NCBI GenBank assembly: GCA_003155695.1
Contig: PMDZ01000008.1
Location: forward strand, 39,362 to 103,361
Source: Candidatus Nomurabacteria bacterium
Lineage (GTDB): Bacteria; Patescibacteriota; Minisyncoccia; Phycocordibacterales; UBA9973
DNA: 64,000 nucleotides
Direction: 5' to 3'
Numbering within the stretch: position 1 is the stretch's first letter; each line of letters opens with the position of its first letter. The translations under genes were made by a program, and so were the position numbers. The notes below the pieces were generated by a model that worked only from the letters and a program-made list of their open reading frames with translations, ran no database searches and was not told the DNA's origin. Below, in pieces: positions 22,797-52,753 of the stretch.

Positions 22797-24482
22797 ATGA
22801 AGAAATATTTTATTTTCTTGATAATCGGTCTTGTGTTTTTAGTAGCAGGATCAAAGCTTGTTTCCGCATGTGAAGATAATACATGCAATAAAACTGATAC
22901 ACGAACTCTCGGTTGTGATACGGGTTATACCGGCTCAATAACAGAGACACGCTACGAGTCAAAAGATCGTTTCGAATGTAAATGGGGTGATTGGAAAGAA
23001 ACTTCAAATACTTGTACAATAATTCCAGTTAAAGTTGATGGAGGCTGGAGTGATTGGAGTGAAAAAGATAACTCATGTGGATATTCTGGAACACAGACTC
23101 GCACATGTACAAATCCAAGTCTTTCAAATGGAGGCGCAGATTGTGTAGGAGATTCTTCTAAAACCTATACAAACGAAAGTTGCTCTACTCCTGTCGCGAC
23201 TATTTCAGCAACAAAGATTGTTTGTCCAACTGAAGACTTACTTCCAAATTGGGGAGCAGGTGGACCAAACATAACTTCTGGAACTGCAAGTGCTTTCTTA
23301 ACAGCAAATCCTACTTGCCATTCAGTCCCTTGGACTTTCGAATGGGCACCAAAGGATACCTTAAATCCTGGAGATCAAGTTGGCGTAGCAGGCGGAGCTT
23401 GGACTTCTTTCACTGGAACTACTACAGTTCCATCAGGAAATACTGTCTGGGTTCGTGAACAATTTGACAATAACTACATTCCATTTACAGGTGTAACAAC
23501 TACTCTAAATGTTTCAGCAGAACTTTACTGTAATATAGACGTTCTAAACTTTGATAACTACGATAGAGTAGATTCAATAGTTAAAGATAACAATTACTAC
23601 TGTATCGGATTCAATGTATTAAAATCAATTCCAGTTGTCTCTTATACTGTCACTGCAAGTGCAGGTGATAATGGAACTATAACTCCAGCTTCACAAGAAG
23701 CAACTTCAGGTACAACCGTCAACTTTACTGTCACTCCAAATTCTGGATATACAGCAACAGTTGGTGGTACTTGCACAGCAGGAACACTTGTCGGAACAAC
23801 TTACACAACTGGAAATATCACAGCTGATTGTACGGTAGAAGCAACGTTTACCAAAATCCCAGCTAATTCTTTCATCCTTACGGTTGAAACACTGGGAACT
23901 GGTACTGGAGTATTTACAGGCGCCGGAACTTATACTTCCGGAACCGTAGTTACTTTAACTGCAACTCCTTCAGATAATTCAACGTTTGATGGTTGGAGTG
24001 AAAATTGTCCAGGAGGTATTGTAACCTTAACAAGTAATATAACTTGTACAGCTACATTTACTTTGAAGACAGTTACTCATCATAGCAGTGGGCATGTTAT
24101 ATCCAGTGGTTCAATTCCAACGACTGGTCAAGTTCTCGGCGCAGAAACCACTTGTGGAATTTATATCGATAAATACATGAGAATGGGACTTAAGGGTAAT
24201 GACCCGATAGCTGTGAAAAAAGTTCAGATATTCTTGAATAGTTACATGGATTCAGGACTTCTCGTTGATGGAGTATTCGGTCCTAAAACCGATACTGCAG
24301 TTAGAGCTTTCCAAACTAAACAGTTTGACAAAGTGCTAGCTCCTTGGGAACTTACTGGCTCAACTGGCATATTTTATTTGACTACTCAAACAGAAGTCAA
24401 TAATATAATGTGTCCATCGTTGAACTTACCGATTCCAGCGTTAATTCCGATAAATCAGAACCCCGCATTCCCTCAATATTAA
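22797..24482 (+). CDS. secreted multidomain surface protein: signal peptide, TSP1-like repeat, two InlB-B-repeat-like domains, C-terminal PG-binding module
   Basis: The TSP1-like block is GGWSDWSEKDNSCGYSGTQTRTCTNPSLSNGGADC. Two ..GY.ATVGG.C..G / ..STFDGWSENCPGG blocks fit the bacterial Ig-like B-repeat pattern. The C-terminus (DGVFGPKTDTAVRAFQ..) fits PG_binding_1. It is followed by the family-specific tail TGIFYLTTQTEVNNIMCP. Confidence 0.6.
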   Translation: MKKYFIFLIIGLVFLVAGSKLVSACEDNTCNKTDTRTLGCDTGYTGSITETRYESKDRFECKWGDWKETSNTCTIIPVKVDGGWSDWSEKDNSCGYSGTQTRTCTNPSLSNGGADCVGDSSKTYTNESCSTPVATISATKIVCPTEDLLPNWGAGGPNITSGTASAFLTANPTCHSVPWTFEWAPKDTLNPGDQVGVAGGAWTSFTGTTTVPSGNTVWVREQFDNNYIPFTGVTTTLNVSAELYCNIDVLNFDNYDRVDSIVKDNNYYCIGFNVLKSIPVVSYTVTASAGDNGTITPASQEATSGTTVNFTVTPNSGYTATVGGTCTAGTLVGTTYTTGNITADCTVEATFTKIPANSFILTVETLGTGTGVFTGAGTYTSGTVVTLTATPSDNSTFDGWSENCPGGIVTLTSNITCTATFTLKTVTHHSSGHVISSGSIPTTGQVLGAETTCGIYIDKYMRMGLKGNDPIAVKKVQIFLNSYMDSGLLVDGVFGPKTDTAVRAFQTKQFDKVLAPWELTGSTGIFYLTTQTEVNNIMCPSLNLPIPALIPINQNPAFPQY

Positions 24483-25083: not shown

Positions 25084-26751
25084 ATGAAAAAAAATAAATT
25101 AATGTCGAAAGTTTCGTCTTTTGTTTCAATGCTTACAATGGTTTTATCGGTTCTAGGTTTTAACGCTTTGACAGCTCAAGCAGCTGTAGCTACAGCACCA
25201 AATCCAACCTTAGGTCAATCTTGCGGAATAAAAGTCGTTTTAATTTTGGATAGCTCAGACAGTATGAGTGACGCCGATATTACAACAGTTAAAAATGATG
25301 CGAATGCATTGGTTGGTTCATTGATGCCTGCAAATCCTATAGGTGTTATTGACTTTGATACACAAGTTGTAAATTCTTTACCTCCTGCAACTGATATCAC
25401 AACCGTAACAAATGCTATCAATTCGATAGGACATACAAATGCTACCGAATCTACAAACTGGGATGCAGCTTTAAATAAAGCTTCCACAATGGTAGGAAGT
25501 GGTGATTTGGTTGTAATTATAACCGATGGTAACCCAACTACTCACGATGGCTCTGGAAATGATATTGATAATGCCGTAACTAGAGCAAATACAATCAAAA
25601 ACATGGGAGCTAGGGTTTTAGCTATTGGAATTAATAGTTCAGGGACTCAAGGTGGTCTTAATCTAGGCAACCTTGAATTAATCTCCGGAACTCAAGTTGC
25701 TAATGGAACATTTACAAATATAAACACAGCTGATGTTTATCTTGGAGATATTTCAACACTTGGTTCCGTATTGGCAAATTTAACTACAGCTTTATGTGGT
25801 GGTCAGCTTACCGTAAGTAAACAGCTATATATGGGAGAAGGAGTGGCTACTATTCCTGGCGGTGCTGGTTGGCAATTTGTTGTCAATGGGAATACTTATC
25901 CAACAGATAATAACAGTAGTATTTCGGTTCCATTTAACAAAGATACAAATGGTATTACAGTTTCCGAAGTAACTCAGACAAATTTTCCGTTTAGATCAGT
26001 TTCTTGTGCTAATGGCACACAAACTGGTGACCAACCAGAAGTCACAGGCATTTCGATCACCAAGAAAACAACAGTTAACTGTACTTTCGTAAATACCCAA
26101 CCCGATATGTGTCCGGGTGATTTGGATCCGGGAGTACAAACAAGTTCTGCTAACTGTACAGTTCCTCCAACATTATGTACAGATCCTACAGCAAATAATG
26201 TAGGATATCCGATACCTTGTACGTTCACAAAGTGTGCATACAATCCGGACATACTAGCAAGTAGTTCAGCTTGTGTTGCTCCAACTTCTAAATTATGCAC
26301 AGATAAAAAAGCAAATAACATGGGTAGTTCATTGCCATGTACTTATAACAGGGGTAGTGGCAGTCATGTATCCAGTGGTTCAATTCTAAAACCTGGTCAA
26401 GTTCTCGGCGCCGTAACTTCTTGTGGAATTTATGTAGATAAATTCTTGAAGAAAGGTTTGAAGGGGAATGACCCGGCTGCTGTCGGGAAAATTCAATCTT
26501 TCTTGAATGATTACACGAGTTCAGGATTGAATGTTGATGGCAAATTTGGCCCTATGACCGATGCTGCTCTCAAGGCTTTCCAGCTTGCTCATGCCGATAA
26601 GATTTTGACTCCATGGGGACTTACAAAGCCAACCGGCATATTCTATTTAACCACTCAAACAGCGGTTAACAATATAATGTGTCCAACACTTGATTTGCCT
26701 ATCCCAGTACTCACTCCGATGGCTCAAAACCCTTTGTTTCCTAAGTTCTAA
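25084..26751 (+). CDS. secreted VWA-domain protein with Cys-rich linker and C-terminal PG-binding module
   Basis: Signal peptide. The MIDAS motif DSSDSMS is followed by a ..ITDGNPT.. VWA pattern. The C-terminal 130 aa are paralogous to the ends of the 22797 and 50366 proteins. Confidence 0.65.
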   Translation: MKKNKLMSKVSSFVSMLTMVLSVLGFNALTAQAAVATAPNPTLGQSCGIKVVLILDSSDSMSDADITTVKNDANALVGSLMPANPIGVIDFDTQVVNSLPPATDITTVTNAINSIGHTNATESTNWDAALNKASTMVGSGDLVVIITDGNPTTHDGSGNDIDNAVTRANTIKNMGARVLAIGINSSGTQGGLNLGNLELISGTQVANGTFTNINTADVYLGDISTLGSVLANLTTALCGGQLTVSKQLYMGEGVATIPGGAGWQFVVNGNTYPTDNNSSISVPFNKDTNGITVSEVTQTNFPFRSVSCANGTQTGDQPEVTGISITKKTTVNCTFVNTQPDMCPGDLDPGVQTSSANCTVPPTLCTDPTANNVGYPIPCTFTKCAYNPDILASSSACVAPTSKLCTDKKANNMGSSLPCTYNRGSGSHVSSGSILKPGQVLGAVTSCGIYVDKFLKKGLKGNDPAAVGKIQSFLNDYTSSGLNVDGKFGPMTDAALKAFQLAHADKILTPWGLTKPTGIFYLTTQTAVNNIMCPTLDLPIPVLTPMAQNPLFPKF

Positions 26752-26770
26752 TTAAGATTATTGGAGTAAA

Positions 26771-26805
26771 AGCAATCCTGCCTTCGGTGGGGTTGTTTTT
26801 ATTTT
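26771..26805 (+). terminator. terminator
   Basis: GCAATCCTGCC-TTCG-GTGGGGTTG followed by a T-run. Similar to the 24501 terminator. Confidence 0.5.
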
Positions 26806-26830
26806 GATTATGTGTTATAATTGACATACA

Positions 26831-27925
26831 ATGAAAAGTGTAGTAAAAATATTCAAGCATATATTTATTCCTCACATTCACAATAACTACAAGCCACACT
26901 TCTTCCGCGAGGTATCCGTGACTGCTATTTTAATTGTTGTTATTGTTTTATTCTCCGTTTCTTTCTGTTCAAAATTATATATTACGAATAAAAATATGAC
27001 GGCCGAAGTTCTGCCGGCAGTTCTTGTTGACCTCGCCAATAAAGATCGTTCCGCCAGTGGTGAACCGGCGCTCACGCGAAATACTCTTCTTGACACTGCC
27101 GCACAATTGAAAGCACAAGATATGGCAAACTCACAATATTTTGCACATACCAGTCCAGCAGGAATTACTCCGTGGCATTGGTTTAATCAAGTTGGATATT
27201 ATTTCACCTACGCTGGGGAAAACTTGGCTATTGATTTTAATGAATCTATGGATGTGGAAAATGCCTGGCTTAACTCCCCAAAACATCGAGAGAATATTAT
27301 GAGTAATAATTTTACCGAAATCGGTATCGCCACTGCGGAGGGCTATTATAATGGTTCACCGACTACTTACGTCGTTCAAATGTTTGGCACTCCGGCTTTT
27401 ATTCCAAAGGCTGAAGCTGCTACGCCAACAATTAGAGCGACATCTGCCCCAGTCGTCACCCCGAAACCTAAAACAGTTGCAAAGAAACCCGTTCCAACTA
27501 CGACAGAAGTAGTCACCAACCAAGAGGTTAAAGGGGAGTCGGTAGTAGCCACTACTCCGGTTACAAATGAAAAACCAGTGGTAGAAGAACAGCAACTGCA
27601 AACCGTTACCGAAACACCCAATTTTATTTTTGTAAAAAATAATGCTCTTAATGACGAAGTTACTTTACAGGTACCAACAACAGTGGCTACAAGCCCAAAA
27701 TATTCTACTTGGCTAGAACGTTTTGTTTTCTTGATTCCTAATTATACCGACCATATATATAAAATATTTGTTTGGGTAGTTATTATTGCGCTTATGCTAA
27801 TGACTATCGTTGAAATAAGACGCCAACAACCGAAAAATATTACTTACGGAATTCTTTTGATTGTCATAATCTTCTGCTTCATTTATATAAACCAATCAAT
27901 ATTTATAACCAGTCTTCTGGTATAA
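26831..27925 (+). CDS. CAP (SCP/PR1-like, YkwD-like) domain membrane protein with Pro/Thr/Val-rich linker and C-terminal TM helices
   Basis: FAHTSPAG..W..N..Y...GENLA...W..SP.HRENIM...FTEIGIA shows the CAP domain signature. The N-terminal TM helix and hydrophobic C-terminus were read by hand. Confidence 0.55.
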   Translation: MKSVVKIFKHIFIPHIHNNYKPHFFREVSVTAILIVVIVLFSVSFCSKLYITNKNMTAEVLPAVLVDLANKDRSASGEPALTRNTLLDTAAQLKAQDMANSQYFAHTSPAGITPWHWFNQVGYYFTYAGENLAIDFNESMDVENAWLNSPKHRENIMSNNFTEIGIATAEGYYNGSPTTYVVQMFGTPAFIPKAEAATPTIRATSAPVVTPKPKTVAKKPVPTTTEVVTNQEVKGESVVATTPVTNEKPVVEEQQLQTVTETPNFIFVKNNALNDEVTLQVPTTVATSPKYSTWLERFVFLIPNYTDHIYKIFVWVVIIALMLMTIVEIRRQQPKNITYGILLIVIIFCFIYINQSIFITSLLV

Positions 27926-31305: not shown

Positions 31306-32070
31306 ATGAAAAAAATATTTAAAAGTTCAATAGTCTGGAAAGCAATGATAGCTATTGTTCTTGCATTCGGTCTCATCGGACCGCTCACCATATTTGCCGC
31401 CGGTCCGCCGGCAGTCGGTCTGGGAACAGCCGGCAACTTTGTCATTCTCTCGAAAGCGGGAATCTCAACTACCGGGGCCACCAGAATTACCGGAAATATC
31501 GGGGTCAGTCCGATAGCTTCGACAGCCATAACGGGATTCGGGCTGATAAAAGACAGGTCAGGCACATTTTCAAGGTCAGTTCGTGTAATCGGGAAGGTAT
31601 ATGCTGCAAATTATACAGCGCCAACTCCCAGCATACTGACCACAGCAGTAAATAATATGCAAACCGCATATACCGATGCTGCCGGAAGAGCACCGACCTC
31701 GGCTGCAACCACGAACTTGGGAGCAGGAAGTATTGGAGGATTAACACTTAAACCTGGTGTTTATAAATGGACAACAGGTGTGACCATACCGACTGATGTA
31801 ACCCTTTCGGGCAGTTCCAGAGATACTTGGATATTCCAAATAGCCGGAACACTAAATATCAGTTCTGGTAAGCACATAATTCTAAAGGGTGGGGCACTAG
31901 CCAAAAATATTTTCTGGCAAGTTGCCGGAGCAACAACGCTCGGAACTTATTCCACCTTCAACGGAACTATCTTGGATAAAACAAATATTGCAATCCAAAC
32001 AGGCGCAGTATTGAATGGTAAAGCCTTAGCACAGACCGCTGTAACATTACAGGCAAATGCTATTAAATAA
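31306..32070 (+). CDS. secreted DUF3494 (ice-binding-like beta-helix) family protein
   Basis: LGTAGNFVILSKAGISTTGATRITGNIGVSP..ITGF, ..LTLKPGVYKW.., and NIFWQVAGATTLGTYSTFNGTIL match the IBP/DUF3494 family consensus along the full length. Confidence 0.7.
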   Translation: MKKIFKSSIVWKAMIAIVLAFGLIGPLTIFAAGPPAVGLGTAGNFVILSKAGISTTGATRITGNIGVSPIASTAITGFGLIKDRSGTFSRSVRVIGKVYAANYTAPTPSILTTAVNNMQTAYTDAAGRAPTSAATTNLGAGSIGGLTLKPGVYKWTTGVTIPTDVTLSGSSRDTWIFQIAGTLNISSGKHIILKGGALAKNIFWQVAGATTLGTYSTFNGTILDKTNIAIQTGAVLNGKALAQTAVTLQANAIK

Positions 32071-32254: not shown

Positions 32255-32806
32255 TTATCGAGTGACACAGATTTTTGCTGCACCTGGAACAGCTGTTTCA
32301 TCAGCTGCTTTATTTGCACACACTGTAATCCTTCCTGTTGGATCGACACCAACATCATAACCAATGTATGGCGCATCTGCAGGAAGAATAGCTGGGTCTA
32401 TTGGTAATGTTGCAACATATGTTGGAACTAAACATCCAAGGTCACCTGATTCTGCTGTTGTAACTGAAGTACGAGCAGTAGAGTTTATCTTTTCGGTTGC
32501 TACACCAACAGCTGCTGAAGGAAGTGGATTGCAGAAATAATCAGTTCCTCCAACTCCTGCAACTGCACCTATATTATACTTACCAGCAAATATTCCTTTA
32601 TTATCTGCAATACGTTGACCGATAGCATTTAAGATCGTATTAACAGCAGCCTGACGCTGTGTATTTCGAGCTTGAGCGAATTGCTTAGCAGGATTGATTG
32701 CAATGATAACGATGGCTGCTAAAATGGCAATAATACCGATAACGACCAAGATTTCAATAAGAGTAAAACCCTTATTTTGCAAACTTTTTAAACTTAATTT
32801 CTTCAT
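32255..32806 (-). CDS. pilA: type IV major pilin (PilA-like)
   Basis: Prepilin class III signal: KGFTLIEILVVIGIIAILAAIV.. with the G|FTLIE cleavage/methylation motif. 183 aa, last gene of the pilus operon. Confidence 0.8.
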   Translation of the reverse strand: MKKLSLKSLQNKGFTLIEILVVIGIIAILAAIVIIAINPAKQFAQARNTQRQAAVNTILNAIGQRIADNKGIFAGKYNIGAVAGVGGTDYFCNPLPSAAVGVATEKINSTARTSVTTAESGDLGCLVPTYVATLPIDPAILPADAPYIGYDVGVDPTGRITVCANKAADETAVPGAAKICVTR

Positions 32807-32877
32807 AAAAAATTCTTTTTAATCTAATAATAATATCGACCATACTATAACTTATTCCGTATCTGTCAAGTGGAAAA

Positions 32878-35800
32878 CTAATTTGCCGTTGGCACCTCAT
32901 GCCAGGAATTCGGGTCAAAATTGAGGTCAGGTGGCGGAGGTGGCGGAGGAATATCGTCGTTGTTTAAAATGCAAACACGTGTTTCTCCTGCTACAATATT
33001 GCCCAGCGAACCAGAAGATGAACAAGTTGCCCCAGGGGTAAATATATAACCGCTCATGCTGTTTTCAGTGACATTATATGCTCCTGGGTCTACGGTAACA
33101 GAAGTACCTGCGCTACTTCCGGCAAATGAAGTTTGCGACGGACTATCTCCGGTTACTTTTACGGTGAAATTTGATTCTGTTTTACTGCCTCCATTATTGT
33201 TATTGACTTTCGTCATTATCATGAGTGTCCCTTTTGTAGGTGGGTCAGGTGGTGTGACAATTTGATTCGAAGGACAAACTCTTTTACCAATATCGGTAAA
33301 AATACCAGCCATATCTGCCGAGGTAGGTGAGATATAGAAATTGTCTCCGTCGGTATTTTCCGTTGCAGTGTCAATAGTTGTTGTAGAATAATAAACTCTG
33401 GCTTGTAACCAATCCAAATTAGTGACAGCATTGCTGTTACATCCAATACCCGGATCAATATCTTGCACACGAACGCGGAAGTTGCTGTTGGAAAAATCTC
33501 CTGGGGCCCAAGTTCGATACCAATTATCAGTCGAACCACCGAAACTAGGTAATTGAGTAAGTGTACTAGTTAAAGTTTGAGTTTTCTGTGGGCTTACCCA
33601 ATGACTACCGCCATCGTAAGATAAGTCCACGCCTAACTGGCAGGTAGTGCTCAGTGTTGTCGGAGTACTGTAACTTACCGTCAAATACATTTGCGTCACT
33701 CTCGGAACAGATGTGCCGTTGCTGGTTTTTTGGACGCCAAACTTGGTCGTCCAGTTGTTGACTTCGGAAACAGTCCAAGCCGAACCAGTCAAAGGATTGA
33801 TAGTCATAGGGCCGTTGTTGTATTGATAGGTAGCGTAACTGGTAGATAAACTATGGCCATTGTCATTGGTCTGATTGCTGCCATTTTCCGTTATTAACTG
33901 CATGGTGGCACTGCTGCCGTTATAACTTTTGGCTACGACGTTCAAAGTCACGGAGTTGACAGTGGCATTAGATGGAACGCCCGCTCCGGCAAAAGCAAAA
34001 GTTTGTTTGTCGGCTTCATCTATGTAGGTAGTATCTCCGTCATTGCCGTTGACCGCATTAACTGCACTGCCGGTATTGGCTAGCCAGTAATTGTATGAGC
34101 CGGGGGCAGTGGGAGTGAGGTTGGAAGGGACTCCAGGAATTGCATAAAAAACATTAACCGGTATCCAATCAAGGGAAATAGTGCGAGAGCTGGATGATGA
34201 ATTAGCAGTAATCCTAACTCTGAAATTAGTGCTGCTTATATCAGAGATTGACCAGGTATGTCCCCAGTTATCAGTAGAACCACCAAGTGTTTTATTATTG
34301 GTATCGTTGGTACTTTCTGTCGACTCATTTTTTTTCGAAGTCCAAGTTGTACCACCATTCCATGAAAGTTCTACATCCACACTATTTGTCCCAGATGTAC
34401 TATCAAGCCACCAATCGGGTCGCACCTGGATTCCTGTTATAGACGCACCTGCAGGAAGCGATGGCATAGTGTATGTAAAACGATTACGATAATTATTTTT
34501 CGCAGTCGCAGCAGAAGAACCACCATCTGAATAAGCATTAGTTGGATTATTAAAACCAGTACCGTCTGCTGATTGTCCAGAAGGCGAAATATAACCAGTG
34601 CTGCCTGATGTGCTATAACTCACAACCAACCACATTTGCGTCACTCGAGGAATCGAAGCGCCATTGTTGGTCTTTTGAACACCAAATTTAGTCGTCCAAT
34701 TGTTGACTTCCGAAACAGTCCATGCCGAACCGGTTATAGGATTTGTGTTCATTGTCCAGCTATAGGGACTGTAGCTTGCAGTCAAACTATGACCGCTATC
34801 ATTAACCGGTGTGCCACCGTTTTCCGCAATTAATCTCATGGTGGCAGTGGTTCCATTAAAACTTTCTGCCACCGCATTAAGAGTCACAGAGTTGATAGTA
34901 ACACCAGCAGGTACGTTTGCTCCCTGAAAAGCAAAAGTTTGATTGTCTGCTTCATCTATATAGGTAGTATCATTATCACTGCTGCTGATTGCATTAACTG
35001 CACTACCGGTATTGGCTGACCAATAATTGTAAGAGCCGAGGGCAGCCGGGGCGAGATTGGGAGTGTTTGTAACAAGAGGACTATCGGTCACCGAAGCCAC
35101 TGCTTTAGCTTCTATTCCATTTATAATAGACCCGGAAGGAATTGTCGGGATATTAAAATTATAATATCTTTGCATGTGGTTTCCCGTATCTGTAGCTGAA
35201 CTACCGCCACTTCCGTAGGCACTTGTCGGAGAAGACCAACCGGTACCACTATCAACACTATTACTTGAGGGTGATAAAAATCCAGTATCATTAGGAGTTG
35301 TAATATAATTTACAGCGGAATTGGTTGCAAGCGACGCAAGAAAAGTCAGCCCGGAAGTATCACCAAAATGAATGGTGTAGATTTGCGTCGGAATGTTATC
35401 CGGTGCCTTGCCCGCACCAGTAGCAGATTTTGCGGCAGTCGCAGCGCTAGTAGCGGCATCAAGAGCGGTTTGATTTACAGCATAACCATCAGCTAATTTT
35501 CCTCCCGGTTCATTTGCTCCTCCATCCGAAACCAGAATCAATACCTTAGCTTTTCCGGCTATATGGTATGAGGTATTATTTAACTCCGCGTCGGCTTTCG
35601 AAATTACTGCACTGAGATTTGTAAATGCGTACTGTATGGGTATACCCAAAAAGAAAGTAGTGACATTTTGTAAAGCATTTCCAATAGTTGTCGGTAAATT
35701 ATTGTAGTTGCTACTCAAATGGGAAACAATTTCCGCACTCGTATTATTGGCATCTGACTGCGTTAACCATAGCTTGGCCACATCGGCAAAATGTCCAACA

Positions 35801-36906
35801 CTGATTTGTGGATGAGGAGTAAGAACACTGTAAAGTGTAACTAGTGAATTTGCAGCTGCTGCTTCATCATTGATCCAATCTGTTCTATACGTGGATTGAT
35901 TCATTGGATCAGTGTAAAACATACTACTGGTGCGGTCCAGCATCATCACAGTATCGGCACAGGTTGGTGCCGGAGGAACCAGATCATCAAAATTTATGAT
36001 ACAAGTTTTATTTTGCCCGAGAGTCATGGTAATATTTCCACTGGAATTACAGTCATAACCCCATGATGATGCACCGTAACCTGAAAGAGTTGTCGCCGAA
36101 ACCGTGTGGCCTCCGGCAGTGACAGTTTTTGGTTGGCCGAGTGTTACTGAAACTCCGTCAATAAAAAGAGGAAAATCGCTTGGAAGTTTATTCCCGCTAT
36201 CATTATTTGTTACATTGGCTAAGACGGTAAGAGTCGTAGTTATATCATCATAAGTAATCGTGCAAAATTTAATTTCGCCGGCAATAACATTCCCCGAACA
36301 ATTACTGCCGATATTCATTGAGTAATTCGAGAGCGTACTGCCATTAACGCTGAATGGGCCGGGTTGAACCGATACAATCACTCCGGATTCTGAACCATCG
36401 AAAGGATCAACCGGATTGACAGCGCTGACGTTCATCGTAAATTCATTCGCTTGTTTTGTTCCACTACTATCATTTATCACATGTGTCGTCACAAAAAGAG
36501 TACCGGTTGTTGGCGCTGTCGGTATAGAAGTTAAATGAAGGTCATGTATCGCCATTGCCATATCAAGATTGGCATAGGAATTTCGAACGACTGCTTGTGT
36601 TTTAACAGTCACAAGTCCTGGAGGGAAATTGACCAGAATCGGGAATATATGACATGAACCTTCATCTTTTGTTATTGTTACATCACCAACATAAGTCGGG
36701 TCAGTGAGCAGGGTAGCCAGTGCTTGTTCGGCGCACCCTTCAGCCAAGTCATTTGCTTGTTCTTTGGCTTCGGTTCCAAGGACATTAAAACGTGAGGACC
36801 AACCGGAAGAACTGGCTTTTACCGCCATAACCAAAAGGATTAGCGAAATTATAATGGTTGCCATCAAAGCTATATATCCTCCTTGTTTTTTATTATTGTG
36901 GTTCAT
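32878..36906 (-). CDS. giant (1342 aa) pilus-associated adhesin: PilX-N-like membrane anchor, VWA domain, repeated beta-rich modules, poly-Pro C-terminus
   Basis: The N-terminus MNHNNKKQGGYIALMATIIISLILLVMAVKASSSGWSSRF fits the PilX_N pattern. The VWA MIDAS motif is MLDRTSSMF.. with VSDGGANEPG. Two ~150-aa internal repeats are present (..GSYNYW.ANTGSAVNA.. TGSAWTVSEVNNWTTKFGVQKT..). Ends with PPPPPPP. Confidence 0.65.
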   Translation of the reverse strand: MNHNNKKQGGYIALMATIIISLILLVMAVKASSSGWSSRFNVLGTEAKEQANDLAEGCAEQALATLLTDPTYVGDVTITKDEGSCHIFPILVNFPPGLVTVKTQAVVRNSYANLDMAMAIHDLHLTSIPTAPTTGTLFVTTHVINDSSGTKQANEFTMNVSAVNPVDPFDGSESGVIVSVQPGPFSVNGSTLSNYSMNIGSNCSGNVIAGEIKFCTITYDDITTTLTVLANVTNNDSGNKLPSDFPLFIDGVSVTLGQPKTVTAGGHTVSATTLSGYGASSWGYDCNSSGNITMTLGQNKTCIINFDDLVPPAPTCADTVMMLDRTSSMFYTDPMNQSTYRTDWINDEAAAANSLVTLYSVLTPHPQISVGHFADVAKLWLTQSDANNTSAEIVSHLSSNYNNLPTTIGNALQNVTTFFLGIPIQYAFTNLSAVISKADAELNNTSYHIAGKAKVLILVSDGGANEPGGKLADGYAVNQTALDAATSAATAAKSATGAGKAPDNIPTQIYTIHFGDTSGLTFLASLATNSAVNYITTPNDTGFLSPSSNSVDSGTGWSSPTSAYGSGGSSATDTGNHMQRYYNFNIPTIPSGSIINGIEAKAVASVTDSPLVTNTPNLAPAALGSYNYWSANTGSAVNAISSSDNDTTYIDEADNQTFAFQGANVPAGVTINSVTLNAVAESFNGTTATMRLIAENGGTPVNDSGHSLTASYSPYSWTMNTNPITGSAWTVSEVNNWTTKFGVQKTNNGASIPRVTQMWLVVSYSTSGSTGYISPSGQSADGTGFNNPTNAYSDGGSSAATAKNNYRNRFTYTMPSLPAGASITGIQVRPDWWLDSTSGTNSVDVELSWNGGTTWTSKKNESTESTNDTNNKTLGGSTDNWGHTWSISDISSTNFRVRITANSSSSSRTISLDWIPVNVFYAIPGVPSNLTPTAPGSYNYWLANTGSAVNAVNGNDGDTTYIDEADKQTFAFAGAGVPSNATVNSVTLNVVAKSYNGSSATMQLITENGSNQTNDNGHSLSTSYATYQYNNGPMTINPLTGSAWTVSEVNNWTTKFGVQKTSNGTSVPRVTQMYLTVSYSTPTTLSTTCQLGVDLSYDGGSHWVSPQKTQTLTSTLTQLPSFGGSTDNWYRTWAPGDFSNSNFRVRVQDIDPGIGCNSNAVTNLDWLQARVYYSTTTIDTATENTDGDNFYISPTSADMAGIFTDIGKRVCPSNQIVTPPDPPTKGTLMIMTKVNNNNGGSKTESNFTVKVTGDSPSQTSFAGSSAGTSVTVDPGAYNVTENSMSGYIFTPGATCSSSGSLGNIVAGETRVCILNNDDIPPPPPPPDLNFDPNSWHEVPTAN

Positions 36907-36907
36907 A

Positions 36908-37384
36908 TTATTCTCTTAAATAAGTTCTAAAATTAAATGGCTTATCTCCGATAAGAAAATTTACCGAAACAGATGGGGGCCTACCGTTTGCACTGGCTGT
37001 ATATGAAAATTTAACATTCGAAACTGGATATCTGTCACTATTTAACTGTATCGGTACACCAACGCCACGAGCAATAGTCATAATAGTGCCATTGCCACTT
37101 ATGACAAGGGGACTCTGTGCACCTAAGTCCGTTCTGGTTATGGTAACCGTATCACCACTTGCGGAGACGGTCGCATCGGATGCGCCGGTAAGAGCCCAGT
37201 TGATTTTACGATTAAGGAAAATTCCTTCTTCTTGTATTCCGGCGGCTGCAACATTATGATTACTTCCTTCAACAAGATTATATGTTCCAACTACAGCTCC
37301 GGTCATAAGTAAGCCGAAAAGAGCAATGTATATCATCGTTTCCATCAATGTAAATCCTTGTTGATTTTTTATCTTTTTTATCAT
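36908..37384 (-). CDS. minor pilin / pseudopilin
   Basis: QGFTLMETMIYIALFGLL prepilin N-terminus. 158 aa. Confidence 0.6.
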   Translation of the reverse strand: MIKKIKNQQGFTLMETMIYIALFGLLMTGAVVGTYNLVEGSNHNVAAAGIQEEGIFLNRKINWALTGASDATVSASGDTVTITRTDLGAQSPLVISGNGTIMTIARGVGVPIQLNSDRYPVSNVKFSYTASANGRPPSVSVNFLIGDKPFNFRTYLRE

Positions 37385-38946
37385 GGTGTGTATATTACTC
37401 CCAACTTATCGGTTGTTAAGTCTTGGCTAATGGCATAAATCCAATCTCCATCTATATCAAATCCAAGAGGGGCTAAGTGGGGAAAACTATAACTTGTAAA
37501 ACGACCGACATTCAATGTTCCTGTCCAAGTAGAATAATCGGAATCCCAAACTTGAAATTCTTGTCCACTTTTGCTTGTTTCTATATATGCATATTTACCT
37601 GATACCTCAATATTTGTTATGCTGGCTCCGACTTCACCTTGTTCGGATTCAGGGGTTAAAGAACTTTCCGGGTTAGTAACATCAAATACATAAAGTTCTG
37701 GACCTCCGGTATTTGATTGACGCCCGAAATATAAATTATTACCCAAAAGAGAAAGACTAAGACCATCTTGACTACCAGGAAGGTCAACTGAATTAAGTTC
37801 CGTTATTGTATCTCCGGTCACATCTAAAATGCCGAGTTCTTTTAAGTCGGAATCAGCAGCAAGAAAAACTAATCTATGGGTAACACCGGAAATTTTTTGG
37901 TCGCGGACAATTATATCATTTACCGTACGGTCAAGTTTAAAACCATTTCCTATTTCGGTTGGAATGGTCGGCGTAGAAATATTGAAAATATGAAATTCGT
38001 TTCCCGAAGTATAGCGAGTTGTCATATATAAACGACCTCCATAAACAAACAAATGCCATCCTTGCGGAGATGAACCCAGAGGGTCAACATTTTGGAGGTC
38101 ACGTTGCGCAACAAGTGTTGGAGTACTTGGGTCTGTCACATCAATAACGGCAAGTTGTTTGGTTGTCGCATTTACGGCCACGAAAGCATAAGTTCTTCCG
38201 GTAGCCAAGTCTTCCTCAACGTCAACAGCATTTAATTTTACCGGAACCCCGAGAACTTTTACAATATCTGTCGGTGAACTAACCAGAACAGGATTTTGAC
38301 CTACCGCTTCCGGGATATCATATATGGAAAAATATGGACTTATATTACTTGTTGTATAAATCTTTTTATGAAGCACATCAATACCAGTAAATTGCTTCCC
38401 TGGAGCAAATGGTAATGACCCTATACTTTCCGGTGTATTATTCTCCCAATCGCCACTCGGTTGATTTAAAACACAATCACCCCCGCGGGCAATAATTTCC
38501 GGGGTATTCGTGAGGTAAGTGAAAAGTTTTGTTGTCGTTGTTGGATAACTGGCTACTTGCCATTCTACTTTGGCTTCCACATATTTTGAGCAAGAAGATA
38601 AATCAGTAATATTTTTTTGAACATAATAGCACAATCCGCCGGCTATACATGAAGCGTCAGCTGAGTCGGAAGGATCTTTTGACACAGTCAAAGGCGAAGA
38701 TACCGCTTGATAAAAATCTTGTTTTATAAGAGAACGTAAATCTTCAAGCGTAGTCTTTGCTTTATAAAGCGCTTCGTTGGCAGTTTGCGAGGTTATTCCC
38801 CAATATTGGGCCGAAAAATTCGCATTTACCGCTCCAACAAGAACAATACAAATAAGAGCAAAAGCAATCATCAGTTCAATTGTTGAAAATCCCGATGTTT
38901 GATAATTGTAAATTTTTTTATTTTTACCAACTAATTTTTCCTTCAT
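37381..38946 (-). CDS. large prepilin-like protein with LVIVD-repeat beta-propeller
   Basis: SGFSTIELMIAFAL prepilin signal. Repeated ..LAVIDVTDPS.., ..LYVFDVTNPES.., and ..LGILDVTGD.. segments are typical of LVIVD repeats. Confidence 0.55.
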   Translation of the reverse strand: MKEKLVGKNKKIYNYQTSGFSTIELMIAFALICIVLVGAVNANFSAQYWGITSQTANEALYKAKTTLEDLRSLIKQDFYQAVSSPLTVSKDPSDSADASCIAGGLCYYVQKNITDLSSCSKYVEAKVEWQVASYPTTTTKLFTYLTNTPEIIARGGDCVLNQPSGDWENNTPESIGSLPFAPGKQFTGIDVLHKKIYTTSNISPYFSIYDIPEAVGQNPVLVSSPTDIVKVLGVPVKLNAVDVEEDLATGRTYAFVAVNATTKQLAVIDVTDPSTPTLVAQRDLQNVDPLGSSPQGWHLFVYGGRLYMTTRYTSGNEFHIFNISTPTIPTEIGNGFKLDRTVNDIIVRDQKISGVTHRLVFLAADSDLKELGILDVTGDTITELNSVDLPGSQDGLSLSLLGNNLYFGRQSNTGGPELYVFDVTNPESSLTPESEQGEVGASITNIEVSGKYAYIETSKSGQEFQVWDSDYSTWTGTLNVGRFTSYSFPHLAPLGFDIDGDWIYAISQDLTTDKLGVIYTP

Positions 38947-39385
38947 GATTTATTGATATTACTGCTGTAATATTACGATTTGGGTCTATCATGGTTATAT
39001 CCGTATCCTCAGCATCGCCGCTTAATTGCTCGAAAGTAATTTCCGTCGGTGATGTTGGACTGAATGTCACTTCGTAGGAAGATTTCGTATCTTCATCTTT
39101 TGAGCTATCTCTCTCATCGTAAGAATTACCTTCAAAAATAACATATCCCTCATATCCCGCCGGATTGATAGCGACACCGTGTTGCTCTTGGTCTATATTA
39201 TTAAGAGCATCGGCTCGGGCAGTTTGGAGAGCAAGACCAAGATTATTTACTTCGGAACGGAAAGCATCTCCTCGGAAACTATTTATATCTATAAATAACG
39301 ACATCGTTGCGATTACACCGACAAGCCCGATGACAACCAGCATTTCCATTAACGTGAACCCTTTTTCTAATTCAACTTTTTTCAT
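38924..39385 (-). CDS. minor pilin / pseudopilin
   Basis: KGFTLMEMLVVIGLVGVIA prepilin N-terminus. The start is taken at the MKKVELEKGFTL ATG rather than the extended ORF. Confidence 0.6.
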   Translation of the reverse strand: MKKVELEKGFTLMEMLVVIGLVGVIATMSLFIDINSFRGDAFRSEVNNLGLALQTARADALNNIDQEQHGVAINPAGYEGYVIFEGNSYDERDSSKDEDTKSSYEVTFSPTSPTEITFEQLSGDAEDTDITMIDPNRNITAVISINHEGKISW

Positions 39386-39389
39386 CTTT

Positions 39390-40637
39390 TTATCCGTGTA
39401 AATTTTGAGTAATACTATAAATCGGTGTGATAATTGAAATAGCGATAAAGCCGACAAGGACACCCATGAAAATCATCAGCGCAGGTTCGATAAGATTCGA
39501 AATATTTTTTGTAAATTCTTCCACTTCGCTTTCGTAAAGTTCGGAAAGATAAATGAAAGAATTTGATAAGTTTCCGGAGCGTTCTCCGACTGAAATTATC
39601 TGAGTTAGGACTTCCGGGAAAAGGTTTCTATTTTTTGCAAGATAAACTGATATTCGTTCTCCTCGATTGACAGCTTCGGACATAGCTTCAAATTCTCTTT
39701 TGTATACTAGATTTCCTGATACTCTTGTTGTTATTTCTAGCGTTTCGCCGAAAGTCACACCACTTTTCAAAAGTAATCCAATCGTACGAGTAGTATTTGC
39801 CAAATTGTAATGTTTTATAACCTCTCCGATCATCGGAATTTTCATCAATAATTTATCGAAATAGAAGCGGAATATTTTAACTTTTTTTAATGTAAAAATA
39901 AAAACAAGAATGAAAATTACAATGCCGAGAACTAGTTCAAGTCCGTGATGAATCAAGAAATCACTGAAAGCCATAATTATCCTTGTTGAAAGGGGAAGAG
40001 TCATGTGCAAACTGGAAAAGACCGGTAAAATTTTTGGGAAAAGATAAACCATCAGGAATCCGGTAATTCCAAGAGTAGCAAAGGTGACAACAGCCGGATA
40101 AACAAAAGCACCTTTAACTTTTTTCTGTAAAGCGTTTTTCTTTTTTAATTCTTCGGCAAGATAGGTGAGATTATCGCTTAAAATTCCTGCAGATTCTCCG
40201 AAGGAAATAATATTTATTGAGAAATCACCAAATATTTTGTGAAATTTTCCAAGACTAGTGGACAGATTGTGCCCACTTGAAACATCATTAATAACCGTAT
40301 CCAAAATGGTAATGAGACCTTTCTGCCTGGTTTGTTCCCGAATCATCGTTAGACTTTCAAGTATTGGTATACCTGCTTTCAAGAGGAATGATAACCTTTT
40401 TATGAAAAAAGTCTGTTCTTTCAATGTCATTTTGAAGAAAGAGGAACTCTTAAAATTACTAAACATTTTCGAAAAAGATGAAGTGCTTTTTTTGGGAGAT
40501 TTTATATTTGATAATTCTTTATTTTTTTCAAATCTGTTTGTTGTATTATTGAAAAACAAAGTAGTGGATACTCCTCCTTTTTGAACGGAACTTTTCAAAG
40601 CGGAACTATTATTCTTTATGTATTTTTTTATTTCCAT
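39390..40637 (-). CDS. pilC: type IV pilus inner-membrane platform protein (GspF/PilC family)
   Basis: Two T2SSF-type repeats with 3-4 TM helices. 415 aa. Confidence 0.8.
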   Translation of the reverse strand: MEIKKYIKNNSSALKSSVQKGGVSTTLFFNNTTNRFEKNKELSNIKSPKKSTSSFSKMFSNFKSSSFFKMTLKEQTFFIKRLSFLLKAGIPILESLTMIREQTRQKGLITILDTVINDVSSGHNLSTSLGKFHKIFGDFSINIISFGESAGILSDNLTYLAEELKKKNALQKKVKGAFVYPAVVTFATLGITGFLMVYLFPKILPVFSSLHMTLPLSTRIIMAFSDFLIHHGLELVLGIVIFILVFIFTLKKVKIFRFYFDKLLMKIPMIGEVIKHYNLANTTRTIGLLLKSGVTFGETLEITTRVSGNLVYKREFEAMSEAVNRGERISVYLAKNRNLFPEVLTQIISVGERSGNLSNSFIYLSELYESEVEEFTKNISNLIEPALMIFMGVLVGFIAISIITPIYSITQNLHG

Positions 40638-40651
40638 ATTATTAAATATTA

Positions 40652-50365: not shown

Positions 50366-52753
50366 ATGAAAAATTATACAAAACCGGTGTTTGTGAAAGT
50401 AGGAATGTTTATTGTTGTTATGTCACTTTTTATTGGTTCATCAGCTGTATCGGCTGCTGTCAATGTCGTTCCGAATGCTAATCTTGAGACCCAATCAAGT
50501 GGTAACCAAAATATTCCTGACCAATGGGAAAAGGGAACCAGCGACTTAGGTGACGTTGTTACTTACACATACCCAGTAACTAGTGCTCCAGTATCCGATA
50601 TTTCAAGTGGTAATGCCGCAAAAATTGAAGCTACTTCTTTTACTTCAGATAAGGGCGCAAAATGGTATTTCACTCCGGTTCCTGTAACTCCTGGTGAGCG
50701 ATATTCTTTCAGCGATTCATATATTGCTACATCCAATACTGATTTAGTTGGAGTTTTCTGTACAGATATTTATCAAAATAATTGTACTTATGATACAACT
50801 CATTCTGTATCTGCAACACCAACTGATACATGGGAACAAGCAACCGCTTCTTTTACGGTACCGATAGGTAAAACATATATGACGGTGTTTCATCGTATTC
50901 AAGTAGCTGGTTCACTAACTATTGATAATTATAATTTAACACTCATACCTCCACCATCTCCATTTGCATCCGGATTCGTAACACTTACTTTTGATGACGG
51001 ACTATTGTCACAATTTAATAATGCTCTATCTGTACTAAATGCCGGAAATGCAAAAGCAACTTTCTTCATTCCAACCCATTTTATTTCTGGTTTTTCTATT
51101 GTTAATCCTTCGTTTGAAAATGCGCCTGGAGGTAATCCAATTGATTGGACTCAATCGGGGGGAACATCTTCTTCAACATTTACTCTTTCTTCTGATTCTC
51201 ATAATGGTGGTGCTTGGGCAGGACAAGTCAGTGATACTGTGACTACTTTAAGTAATGCTGCTTGGTCTTTCACTCCGGTAACTGTTATTCCTGATACTAT
51301 TTATTCTTTTAAAGAATATTATAAGAGTACAGCAAATTCAGAACTCGTTGCGAAAGTAACTTTAGACGATAACTCTACTACAATAACTGCTGACGTTGTG
51401 GATAGTGGTGGCGCAACTTTAGGTATTAGCGTACCGCTTCCTGCATCTGCTGATTACACTCAAACTCAAGCATATTTCTATATGCCTACTAATGCTAAAT
51501 CAGTCACAATATTAAATAAATTAACTAGCGCTGGAACTCTTACTATCGACGATGTGTCACTTGGCAGAGAAGGATATATGACGAGTGACCAAGTGCTATC
51601 ACTTCAATCAGCAGGAAATGAAATCGGTGGCCATACACAAACACACCCAGACCTCACAACAGTTACACCAACAGATCTGACAAATGAAATTAGTGGTGGT
51701 CGCCAGGACCTTATTAGTAATGGCATAACTGCTCCAGTATCGTTTGCGTATCCATTTGGCGCATACAATACAACAATTCAAGACGCTCTCACAAGTGCAG
51801 GTTACACATCTGGTCGTACCGTTTTGCCATCTGGATTTAATGATTTATCTACTCCAAAACTGTCTCTCTTCTCTCAATCAATAGATGCAAATACTACACT
51901 AGATCAAGTAGCTAACTGGATTGCTGAAGCCAAAGCAAATAAGAGCTGGTTGATTTTAACATTCCATGATATACAAAATGATATTACAGGAACTCCATAT
52001 GGAACGACACCACAAATCCTTGCTGGAATTATTTCAGACGTAACATCAGAAGGTCTTCCTATAAAAACTGTTAGCGAGGGAGTTGAATTAATGGGTAATG
52101 TAACTCCACCAACTGACCCAGTTTGTACGCTTCCTCAAGTATTAGAGAATCATGTATGTGTTACTCCAGTAGTTACTGACCCAGTTTGTACACTTCCTCA
52201 AGTATTAGAGAATCATGTATGTATCACGCCGACAAGATGCGCATACAATTCGGACCTGTTAGCAAGCGACCCACTCTGTGTTGCTCCGGCAATGTGTCAA
52301 TACAATTCTAACTTGTTAGCGAGCGATAAAGATTGTGTAGCTCCGAAAACACCAACGCATCATATATCGTCAGGTTCTATTCCGATGTCTACCCAAGGTA
52401 GTGTTCTCGGCGCCAAGACTTCTTGTGGAATTTATATAGATAAGTTTTTAGGAATGGGACTTAAGGATAATGATGTGGAAGCTGTTGAAAAAATTCAAAC
52501 TTTCTTAAATGACAATATGTCTGCAGGACTTGTTGTTGATGGATTTTTTGGTGCTATGACCAATGATGCACTTAAAGCCTTCCAGCTTGCGCATGCAGAC
52601 AAAGTCTTGGAACCTTGGGGTCTGACTGCTCCAACCGGCATATTCTACTTAACCACTCAAACGGCAGTGAATAATATAATGTGTCCGGCCTTAGATTTGC
52701 CAATCCCAGTACTCACTCCGATAGCTCTAAATCCATTGTTTCCCAAAAAATAG
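50366..52753 (+). CDS. secreted CE4 (NodB) polysaccharide deacetylase with N-terminal CBM-like domain, a second CBM-like domain inserted into the catalytic domain, and a C-terminal PG-binding module
   Basis: NodB motifs are TFDDG; H-T-Q-T-H; AYPFG; L-T-F-H-D. About 215 aa separate motif 1 from motif 2. The C-terminal 130 aa are paralogous to the ends of the 22797 and 25084 proteins. Confidence 0.7.
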   Translation: MKNYTKPVFVKVGMFIVVMSLFIGSSAVSAAVNVVPNANLETQSSGNQNIPDQWEKGTSDLGDVVTYTYPVTSAPVSDISSGNAAKIEATSFTSDKGAKWYFTPVPVTPGERYSFSDSYIATSNTDLVGVFCTDIYQNNCTYDTTHSVSATPTDTWEQATASFTVPIGKTYMTVFHRIQVAGSLTIDNYNLTLIPPPSPFASGFVTLTFDDGLLSQFNNALSVLNAGNAKATFFIPTHFISGFSIVNPSFENAPGGNPIDWTQSGGTSSSTFTLSSDSHNGGAWAGQVSDTVTTLSNAAWSFTPVTVIPDTIYSFKEYYKSTANSELVAKVTLDDNSTTITADVVDSGGATLGISVPLPASADYTQTQAYFYMPTNAKSVTILNKLTSAGTLTIDDVSLGREGYMTSDQVLSLQSAGNEIGGHTQTHPDLTTVTPTDLTNEISGGRQDLISNGITAPVSFAYPFGAYNTTIQDALTSAGYTSGRTVLPSGFNDLSTPKLSLFSQSIDANTTLDQVANWIAEAKANKSWLILTFHDIQNDITGTPYGTTPQILAGIISDVTSEGLPIKTVSEGVELMGNVTPPTDPVCTLPQVLENHVCVTPVVTDPVCTLPQVLENHVCITPTRCAYNSDLLASDPLCVAPAMCQYNSNLLASDKDCVAPKTPTHHISSGSIPMSTQGSVLGAKTSCGIYIDKFLGMGLKDNDVEAVEKIQTFLNDNMSAGLVVDGFFGAMTNDALKAFQLAHADKVLEPWGLTAPTGIFYLTTQTAVNNIMCPALDLPIPVLTPIALNPLFPKK

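Follow-up and report, generated by a model that had tools for sequence, protein, structure and literature searches.

Can a bacterium carry a genuine thrombospondin type-1 repeat (TSR) on its surface, and in what form and to what end? The question is raised by one gene in the 64,000-nucleotide stretch of Candidatus Nomurabacteria contig PMDZ01000008.1 that we analysed (positions 39,362 to 103,361; here called the window). The gene, an intact open reading frame (ORF) of 561 codons including the stop at 22797..24482 on the plus strand, encodes a modular secreted surface protein, in which a first-pass annotation had placed a near-canonical TSP1 repeat. A nearly identical database protein (P0001; ENA ERZ28653714, WOOD18-1 scaffold_160) has likewise been called as a gene, and the two differ at a single position, codon 279 (23631-23633; P279 versus T279). 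The explanation that accounts best for all of our data, and that we hold to be quite probable, is that the protein carries a TSR of the C3-C4 class and of a four-cysteine subtype, that it comes from a member of the Paceibacterota and is anchored to the cell wall, and that the repeat forms part of a swappable cassette and acts as an adhesive rod.

Sequence comparisons pointed to one family. When residues 52-141 were searched with phmmer against 177,635 sequences of the Protein Data Bank (PDB), all 28 matches were TSR-bearing chains, led by UNC5B (E=2.1e-11) and including thrombospondin-1 (TSP-1; 1.1e-7), UNC5D/A, properdin, C7, C8 and ADAMTS13. A profile made from 17 bacterial repeats of the four-cysteine subtype only (alignment A1) matched 30 PDB chains, every one of them TSR-bearing as before; E was 8.3e-17 for UNC5B and 3.9e-13 for TSP-1. 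Both C3 and C4 of the animal repeats are present at the aligned positions, and the best matches are to UNC5 and TSP-1. UNC5 and TSP-1 are, with properdin and ADAMTS, members of the C3-C4 disulfide class, which has been set apart from the C1-C4 class of spondin and CCN proteins (Xu et al., bioRxiv 10.1101/779553); the TSP1_spondin model indeed reached only 13.4 bits on the window protein against a cut-off of 41. By sequence, residues 79-131 (23031..23189, plus strand), a segment delimited by phmmer, profile, Pfam and structure-based results together, thus qualify as a genuine TSR of the C3-C4 (TSP-1/UNC5/properdin/ADAMTS) class, and the central claim of the first-pass annotation, a true TSP1 repeat in a secreted bacterial protein, is borne out.

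The Pfam family TSP_1 (PF00090, clan CL0692; gathering cut-off 21.6 bits), which had been proposed as a check, gave a divided answer: the whole protein scored 17.8 bits, an 80-residue fragment 22.2 bits and the isolated 55-residue segment 23.8 bits. Taken singly, 14 of the 17 subtype members are matched by PF00090 (E<0.01). Canonical six-cysteine bacterial TSRs score 44-70 bits on the same model, and an unbroken series of sequences links the four-cysteine subtype to them. An NCBIfam search of the window protein returned nothing relevant. P0001 has no precomputed PF00090 entry, and another protein with such a repeat (L003) has no TSP_1 match at 1e-4. As full-length proteins with the subtype score at or below the Pfam threshold, current annotation probably under-counts the TSRs of Patescibacteria.

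The peptide first singled out, at nt 23046-23165 (translated, WSDWSEKDNSCGYSGTQTRTCTNPSLSNGGADCVGDSSKT), is present on the plus strand within the ORF. The string quoted for it begins two codons before that, at the GGW encoded from 23040, and its end was set too early: because the domain reaches its last cysteine codon at 23181-23183, an end at 23165 omits strand III and the final cysteine. The core from GGW to that cysteine, GGWSDWSEKDNSCGYSGTQTRTCTNPSLSNGGADCVGDSSKTYTNESC, occupies nt 23040-23183. Its key residues are W84 and W87 in strand I, K90 at the position of C1, C94 (C2), Q100 and R102 in strand II, C104 (C3), C116 (C4), Y124 at the position of C5, and C129 (C6).

Structure prediction was compatible with this assignment. 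An AlphaFold2 (AF2) model of residues 74-140, computed from a 32-row alignment (A4), had a mean predicted local distance difference test score (pLDDT) of 75.6 and contained two regular strands, SGTQTRTC (residues 97-104) and DSSKTYT (residues 119-125). The tryptophan-bearing segment was confident yet irregular, with pLDDT values of 88-92 for residues 84-103. In the model, one irregular tryptophan strand beside two regular strands is the layout expected of a TSR. In a Foldseek comparison with the PDB, TSR domains filled nearly all of the first 23 or so ranks, among them the TSRs of TSP-1, F-spondin TSR4 (probability 0.87), TRAP (0.80), BAI1, C6/C8, Sema5A, MIC2, CSP and properdin, with E-values that were not significant.

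Alignment A4 further revealed that bacterial TSRs come in two forms sharing the core GTQTRTCTNP.P.NGGA.C.G. The six-cysteine form reads WSAWS-a-C-s-x-x-C-GGG ... Q-x-C-NTQ-x-C, and the four-cysteine form, represented in the window, WSDWS-x-K-x-N-x-C-GYSG ... Q-x-Y-TN-x-x-C. As both are equal in length, K90 falls on the C1 position and Y124 on the C5 position. C1 and C5 were jointly replaced in 17 of 17 sequences of the subtype, by K/Q/V/L and by Y/I. Work by Tan and colleagues from 2002 is said to have identified C1-C5 and C2-C6 as the two disulfides between strands I and III of the thrombospondin-1 TSRs. In the four-cysteine variant the sequence shows Lys90 and Tyr124 in place of the C1-C5 pair with no change in length, and structurally the pair would stand where one strand I-strand III disulfide was lost. 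The remaining bonds would be C94-C129 and C104-C116, and a Lys-Tyr contact in place of the missing cystine is plausible.

Strand I retains W84-S-D-W87, which is invariant in the subtype, and lacks the third tryptophan rung, as do many six-cysteine bacterial TSRs. Strand II, T-Q100-T-R102-T-C104, has an invariant Arg, its only one, and a nearly invariant Gln; the loop TCTNP..NGG is invariant in alignment A1. The term near-canonical therefore has to be given up: the repeat is short of one Trp/Arg rung and of one bottom disulfide out of two, and the tryptophan ladder and cysteine spacing, both described as retained, amount to two Trp rungs (W84, W87) and four of the six canonical cysteines (C94, C104, C116, C129). 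Likewise, the supposed CSxTCG-like motif is NSCGYSG, its first Cys being K90, and the supposed QTRTRxC is TQTRTC, with R102 as its single Arg.

The pattern of loss is itself informative. In a set of 114 TSRs, drawn partly from homologs and partly from labelled genomes of bacteria, cysteine counts before C3 covaried with those after C4: 34 repeats had one on either side, 70 had two before and at least two after, and seven were discordant (Fisher p=1e-20, a statistic that ignores relatedness). Repeats with three rungs (WxxWxxW) had a strand II two residues longer than those with two, 10 versus 8. Judged from sequence, both covariations are as TSR architecture predicts. Other reduced forms, in loci L017, L022 and L025, keep a cysteine at the C5 distance instead; because they differ from the subtype in this way, pairwise cysteine loss has occurred more than once. 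The four-cysteine representatives reported below were counted by strict motifs. Classing 1,567 TSR domains by their columns on the subtype hidden Markov model proved unreliable, since three-rung repeats shift the register and place a Trp in the C1 column.

With four cysteines the window repeat falls short of the six cysteines and three C layers of the standard definition, and the two bottom layers, between strands I and III, are, according to Xu et al. (bioRxiv 10.1101/779553), conserved in every TSP1 domain. The same study describes the Plasmodium CSP alpha-TSR as lacking the top disulfide and places CCN3 and F-spondin in the C1-C4 class. Since the cysteines are lost as a pair, and disulfide variants are already known in the family, we regard the four-cysteine form as a subtype, and its cysteine count does not exclude homology. 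The eukaryotic variants resemble it in that the fold tolerates one disulfide lost or rewired together with an incomplete Trp/Arg ladder; they differ in that theirs alter the top C layer, whereas the window repeat keeps C3-C4 and loses one bottom bond between strands I and III.

Compared with the animal C3-C4 TSRs matched by PF00090 (TSP-1 TSR2/3, UNC5, properdin, ADAMTS13), the window repeat has the same order of motifs (GGW-S-x-W-S, C-G, TQTR-x-C-x-NP-x-P-x-NGG-x-x-C-x-G, and a terminal C), possesses C3 and C4, and is predicted to form an elongated three-stranded unit; its core is about 45-50% identical to UNC5B TSR1. In contrast to them it has four cysteines rather than six, the C1-C5 bottom layer giving way to Lys/Tyr, and two Trp rungs with one Arg rather than three with two to three. 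It is also acidic instead of basic, has lost the O-fucosylation consensus, and resides in a bacterial protein with a peptidoglycan anchor. Eukaryotic TSRs are modified by C-mannosylation of Trp and by O-fucosylation at CxxS/TCxxG; as C1 is Lys in the window repeat, the latter consensus is destroyed, and WxxW is still there. The six-cysteine bacterial TSRs (L012 Moranbacteria, L021 Bacteriovoracaceae, L024 Bdellovibrio, L020 Magasanikbacteria, P0080 Paceibacterota) are closer in kind: they share the core GTQTRTCTNP.PANGGA.C.G and the same types of secreted modular proteins, sometimes even the same protein (P0057, P0073). Unlike the window subtype, which Pfam often misses, they retain both C1 and C5 and are readily recognised by Pfam.

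Which organism, then, bears this repeat, and how isolated is it? The ATP synthase beta subunit encoded in the window is 86-94% identical to proteins of Candidatus Paceibacterota, Pacebacteria and the Patescibacteria group, and by this sequence measure the host is a bacterium of the Paceibacterota (Patescibacteria, or Candidate Phyla Radiation, CPR). When species genomes of the GTDB were scanned with the subtype alignment as seed, at least 35 loci from at least five phyla proved to encode TSRs. Among the matches listed, the Patescibacteria comprised Saccharibacteria, Paceibacterota, Minisyncoccia, Moran-, Nomura-, Magasanik-, Zambryskii- and Uhrbacteria; outside the Patescibacteria there were Bdellovibrionota/Bacteriovoracaceae, Myxococcales, Rickettsiales and uncultured Gammaproteobacteria, together with one small contig labelled Methanosarcinales. 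An exhaustive profile search matched 5,985 cluster representatives at E<=1e-3, 304 of them at E<=1e-30. The earlier statement that TSP1 repeats are rare outside eukaryotes was thus an overstatement; TSRs are fairly widespread in episymbiotic and predatory bacteria.

The strict four-cysteine motif occurred in at least 23 representatives, and the labelled examples were from Saccharibacteria or Paceibacterota, except for one metagenome-assembled genome (MAG) labelled Burkholderiales. Two MAG proteins labelled 'Burkholderiales bacterium', P0184 with a four-cysteine TSR and P0369, an ATPase beta subunit 87% identical to that of the window, look like those of Patescibacteria. As the same label is attached to such an ATPase, it is probably a mislabel or the result of mis-binning. 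Reduced and canonical repeats stand together in the single proteins P0057 and P0073, and because they coexist in this way the four-cysteine form most simply arose within bacteria.

Other bacteria present TSRs in other ways. In three cases the repeats stand behind the N-terminal methylation motif of a type IV pilin: in an uncultured gammaproteobacterium (L008, 2900-4786), in a Bacteriovoracaceae genome (L021, 2972-4399) and in a third MAG (P0112). This arrangement suggests, from sequence, that TSRs are displayed on pilus-like fibres for adhesion. It resembles that of modular type IV pilins with an additional domain for adhesion, such as Streptococcus sanguinis PilB (PDB 7ba2); the window protein, by contrast, has no pilin N-terminus, and the comparison concerns the bacterial use of TSRs rather than the window architecture. 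A tandem array of 11 TSRs joined by K/R-R-H-GGW linkers is encoded in a Bacteriovoracaceae MAG (L025, JADHTQ010000026.1, 3242-5347), and these repeats represent a different four-cysteine type, with a single Cys after the Trp strand and a single Cys at the C5 distance. Short tails recur in other TSR proteins (P0057, P0073, P0078, P0081, P0087, P0190, P0201, P0109, P0120, P0185), ending in ..VTVKKKPAVIER, ..VGKIKPTVKEI, ..IKKPIIIEN or ..KKTTTTTIQ(H). By their sequences, they may be C-terminal sorting or anchoring signals.

In the window protein, an extracellular location is indicated at both ends. A signal peptide, by which the protein would be exported through the Sec pathway, is predicted at residues 1-24 (MKKYFIFLIIGLVFLVAGSKLVSA|C; 22797..22868, plus strand) from its KK n-region, hydrophobic core and VSA at -3 to -1, all read from the sequence. 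At the other end, a C-terminal anchor module of about 120 residues (24117..24479, plus strand) contains a PG_binding_1 domain (PF01471; residues 472-508, nt 24210-24320) that scores 28.5 bits against a cut-off of 23. The module looks like a common wall-anchoring device, and its PG_binding_1 domain would hold the protein on the cell wall. The same tail is common to 35 of the 120 best homologs, where it follows many different passenger domains, and it ends three genes of the window (24117-24479, 26395-26748 and 52391-52747) with 65-67% identity. As one tail stands behind so many different passengers, we take these wall-anchored proteins to be one family whose outer parts are exchangeable. The cleavage site VSA|C (residues 22-25, nt 22860-22871) fits both the AXA rule and a loose lipobox; C25 is an extra cysteine relative to N-terminal module homologs without it. 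From sequence, C25 may be lipidated, which would put the N-terminus at the membrane.

Between the TSR and the anchor lie two further segments. Residues 132-278 (23190..23630, plus strand), recognised by phmmer and in alignment A5, constitute an uncharacterised domain of about 150 residues with the motif ATKIVC..LPNWG..W.FEW..VRE..YIPF..SAE.YC..DVLNYDN..YYC.GFN, four invariant cysteines and many invariant aromatic residues. For this mid domain, no Pfam family exceeded its cut-off and no sequence relative turned up in the PDB; the domain occurs in 29 of 120 homologs by phmmer, and in five of the six proteins of the hit set that have both domains it directly adjoins the TSR. It is followed by two InlB B-repeat (Flg_new_2) domains at residues ~279-430 (23631..24086, plus strand; PF18998, E=3.3e-14, in two stretches).

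A positional ortholog in a close relative offers a natural comparison. P0004 (JGI 3300075153) lies on a 23.3-kb contig on which the ATP synthase operon has the same gene order as in the window, and the beta subunit of this genome (P0273) is 94% identical to that of the window. Along the locus, the ATP synthase operon is followed by a DNA-alkylation repair gene, the surface protein gene, a small ORF and the genes for a VWA protein bearing the anchor, a CAP protein and a pilin. P0004 shares with the window protein its signal peptide, its N-terminal module (80% identity) and residues 279-561 (76% identity). Where the window protein has the TSR and the mid domain, P0004 has extra InlB B-repeats. 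The junctions on either side of the window segment, IPVKVDGGW and STP.ATISATKI, recur in the independent assemblies P0003 and P0005. At the sequence level, the TSR and mid domain thus behave as an exchangeable cassette within the variable region of genes that are orthologous.

What might such a cassette do? In our view the TSR would be a small rigid rod, stabilised by two disulfides and by its short ladder of Trp and Arg, and would present or form part of an adhesive surface; as an exposed part of an adhesin, it would make contact with another cell or with the polymers on that cell's surface. Such a role in cell contact fits the episymbiotic life of the group, and on balance we give an adhesive function of this kind a somewhat better than even chance. 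The apicomplexan adhesins TRAP and MIC2 are comparable in that an extracellular TSR is borne on a surface-tethered protein of an organism that needs to attach to another cell; TRAP is moreover among the best fold matches, and the neighbour of the window gene encodes a VWA protein that carries the same anchor. They differ in that VWA and TSR are on separate polypeptides in the window, and in that the window protein ends in a peptidoglycan-binding module rather than in a motor-coupled transmembrane helix.

Several points tell against the adhesive rod. The basic patch of TSRs has been proposed to bind heparan sulfate. The window repeat has 4 K/R against 7 D/E residues and hence a net charge of -3, which, from the sequence, removes the best-known class of TSR ligands; because the repeat is acidic and has no basic patch, a polyanion such as heparan sulfate or another sulfated ligand is unlikely. 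If C25 is lipidated, the TSR would be near the membrane and not at the distal tip. The disulfide pairing, and any contact between K90 and Y124, are projected from homology, and the whole-protein Pfam score stays below the gathering cut-off. A purely structural spacer role would be equally compatible with the data.

According to this last alternative, the TSR would be a true homolog serving as an inert, disulfide-stapled spacer in a stalk, with binding left to the mid domain or to the N-terminal module. It draws on the acidity of the repeat, on a ladder cut down to two Trp and one Arg, on the stalk-like InlB B-repeats that occupy the place of the TSR in P0004, and on the rod-like appearance of extended tandem arrays, the 11 repeats of L025 for instance. 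The presence of TSRs on pilin-like proteins and the invariance of the loop residues TCTNP..NGG suggest, however, more than a spacer, and we rate this possibility as a serious one that is nonetheless unlikely to be right. A bolder extension of the adhesive reading strikes us as less probable still: that TSRs, rather than being imported now and then from eukaryotes, are an established prokaryotic module for attachment between cells, most frequent in lineages whose members live on other cells or prey on them (Patescibacteria, Bdellovibrionota, Myxococcota and Rickettsiales-like bacteria), carried on wall-anchored adhesins and type IV pilin-like proteins, with the four-cysteine Lys-Tyr form as its adaptation, and, in its strongest version, that the eukaryotic TSR descends from bacterial repeats.

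We give little credence to a recent acquisition from a eukaryote, by which the protein would mimic extracellular-matrix proteins of a host and so bind the cells or glycans of eukaryotes. The idea is attractive because the highest similarity is to animal TSRs (UNC5B, TSP-1), a ctenophore protein (P0074) is among the full-length matches, and genes of the window code for VWA, CAP, HYR and TSP_3 domains, all characteristic of animal matrix proteins. The composition of the gene argues otherwise: GC content is 0.41 in the TSR segment, close to 0.39 in the gene and 0.38 in the window, and bacterial TSR loci among the matches listed span 0.32 to 0.67, so that a recent import is not supported. The four-cysteine subtype is found in many independent Patescibacteria assemblies, and the mixture of canonical and reduced TSRs in P0057 and P0073 implies diversification inside bacteria. 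The O-fucosylation consensus and the basic patch are both missing and, in published abstracts, cultivated relatives of the group are described as episymbionts of prokaryotes. Mimicry of eukaryotes is therefore not favoured, and an ancient transfer, in either direction, may have taken place.

That the Trp/Cys pattern might be a convergent bacterial repeat and no TSR at all seems very improbable to us. The sub-threshold Pfam score of the whole protein and the non-significant Foldseek E-values would be in keeping with it; against them stand the profile (E=8e-17), which matches TSR chains exclusively, the continuous series to canonical bacterial repeats, and covariation that tracks the geometry of TSR disulfides and rungs. 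An assembly chimera or eukaryotic contamination, conceivable because the source is a metagenome assembly, is hardly credible for a repeat that lies in one unbroken ORF of uniform composition between a bacterial signal peptide and a peptidoglycan-binding anchor, that is flanked by a Paceibacterota ATP synthase operon, and whose cassette junctions recur in P0003 and P0005.

The presence of a TSR in a bacterium is not in itself new, since databases already flag bacterial proteins with PF00090. A literature search, judged mostly by titles and the openings of abstracts, found no paper on bacterial type-1 repeats, and the work linking thrombospondin and CPR bacteria that was examined in text concerns type-3 repeats. 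What seems to be undescribed is the four-cysteine subtype lacking one bottom C layer, its concentration in Patescibacteria and its frequent escape from Pfam. In published abstracts, how the ultrasmall CPR bacteria recognise and hold onto partner cells is treated as largely unknown, and the window protein belongs to a wall-anchored family with exchangeable tips; a cassette present in one genome and replaced in a close relative is the pattern expected of a surface in contact with a host. The subtype also serves TSR biology as a natural experiment, in which one bottom disulfide is dispensable when Lys/Tyr replaces it.

The first-pass annotation had also suggested that the segment CKWGDWKETSNTC (residues 61-73) preceding the TSR may be a degenerate half-repeat. 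The segment is instead the C-terminal hairpin of an independent all-beta module. This cysteine-rich N-terminal module (residues 25-73, 49 residues; 22869..23015, plus strand), defined by alignment A3 and an AF2 model, has the motif C..ETRT..C.TGYTGSITETR..C.WGDW.ETSNTC with four invariant cysteines, and was modelled with four strands at a pLDDT of 89.6. Its profile found no relative among PDB sequences, and its model no fold match in the PDB by Foldseek (top 50 all at E>=3.8, no TSR among them). An hhalign comparison with the TSR gave 43% probability over 14 columns only, and the module stands without a following TSR in six proteins (P0002, P0004, P0007, P0008, P0011, P0023); on these grounds together the half-repeat was rejected. 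A joint alignment of module and TSR (A2) was dropped when MAFFT pulled C.WGDW.ETSNTC onto the GGWSDWSEKDNSC of the TSR, and because of this misalignment the two were modelled separately. Both the MAFFT join and the 14-column match arise because the last 14 residues of the module resemble the Trp strand of a TSR. The module begins at least seven surface proteins of Patescibacteria type.

Downstream of the gene, the window encodes, on the plus strand and as at the orthologous locus, a VWA surface protein (25084..26751) with the same C-terminal anchor (67% identity) and, as a conserved neighbour, a CAP (cysteine-rich secretory protein) domain protein (26831..27925). Farther away, also on the plus strand, a polysaccharide deacetylase with CBM_4_9 and PG_binding_1 domains (50366..52753) carries the anchor at 65% identity. 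A promoter and terminator scan was uninformative. Within 20 kb of the TSR gene there is an unusual cluster of extracellular domains familiar chiefly from matrix or secreted proteins of animals, namely VWA, CAP, HYR and thrombospondin type 3, together with an ice-binding-like protein (25084-27925, 31306-32070 and 42143-43867). The last of these ORFs (TSP_3 repeat, HYR and bacterial Ig-like domains) stops just as an anchor-like sequence, GGQVLGAE..., starts, and a PG_binding-like ORF at 43846-44010 carries on in another frame; the region 42143-44010 probably reflects a frameshift in a gene or a fault of the assembly. Finally, a type IV pilus-like cluster occupies 32255-41875 on the minus strand, with a T2SSE/PilB ATPase (40652-41875), T2SSF/PilC (39390-40637), N_methyl pilins (36908-37384 and 32255-32806), an LVIVD-repeat protein (37381-38946) and a 1,342-residue protein with SpaA_2 domains (32878-36906).

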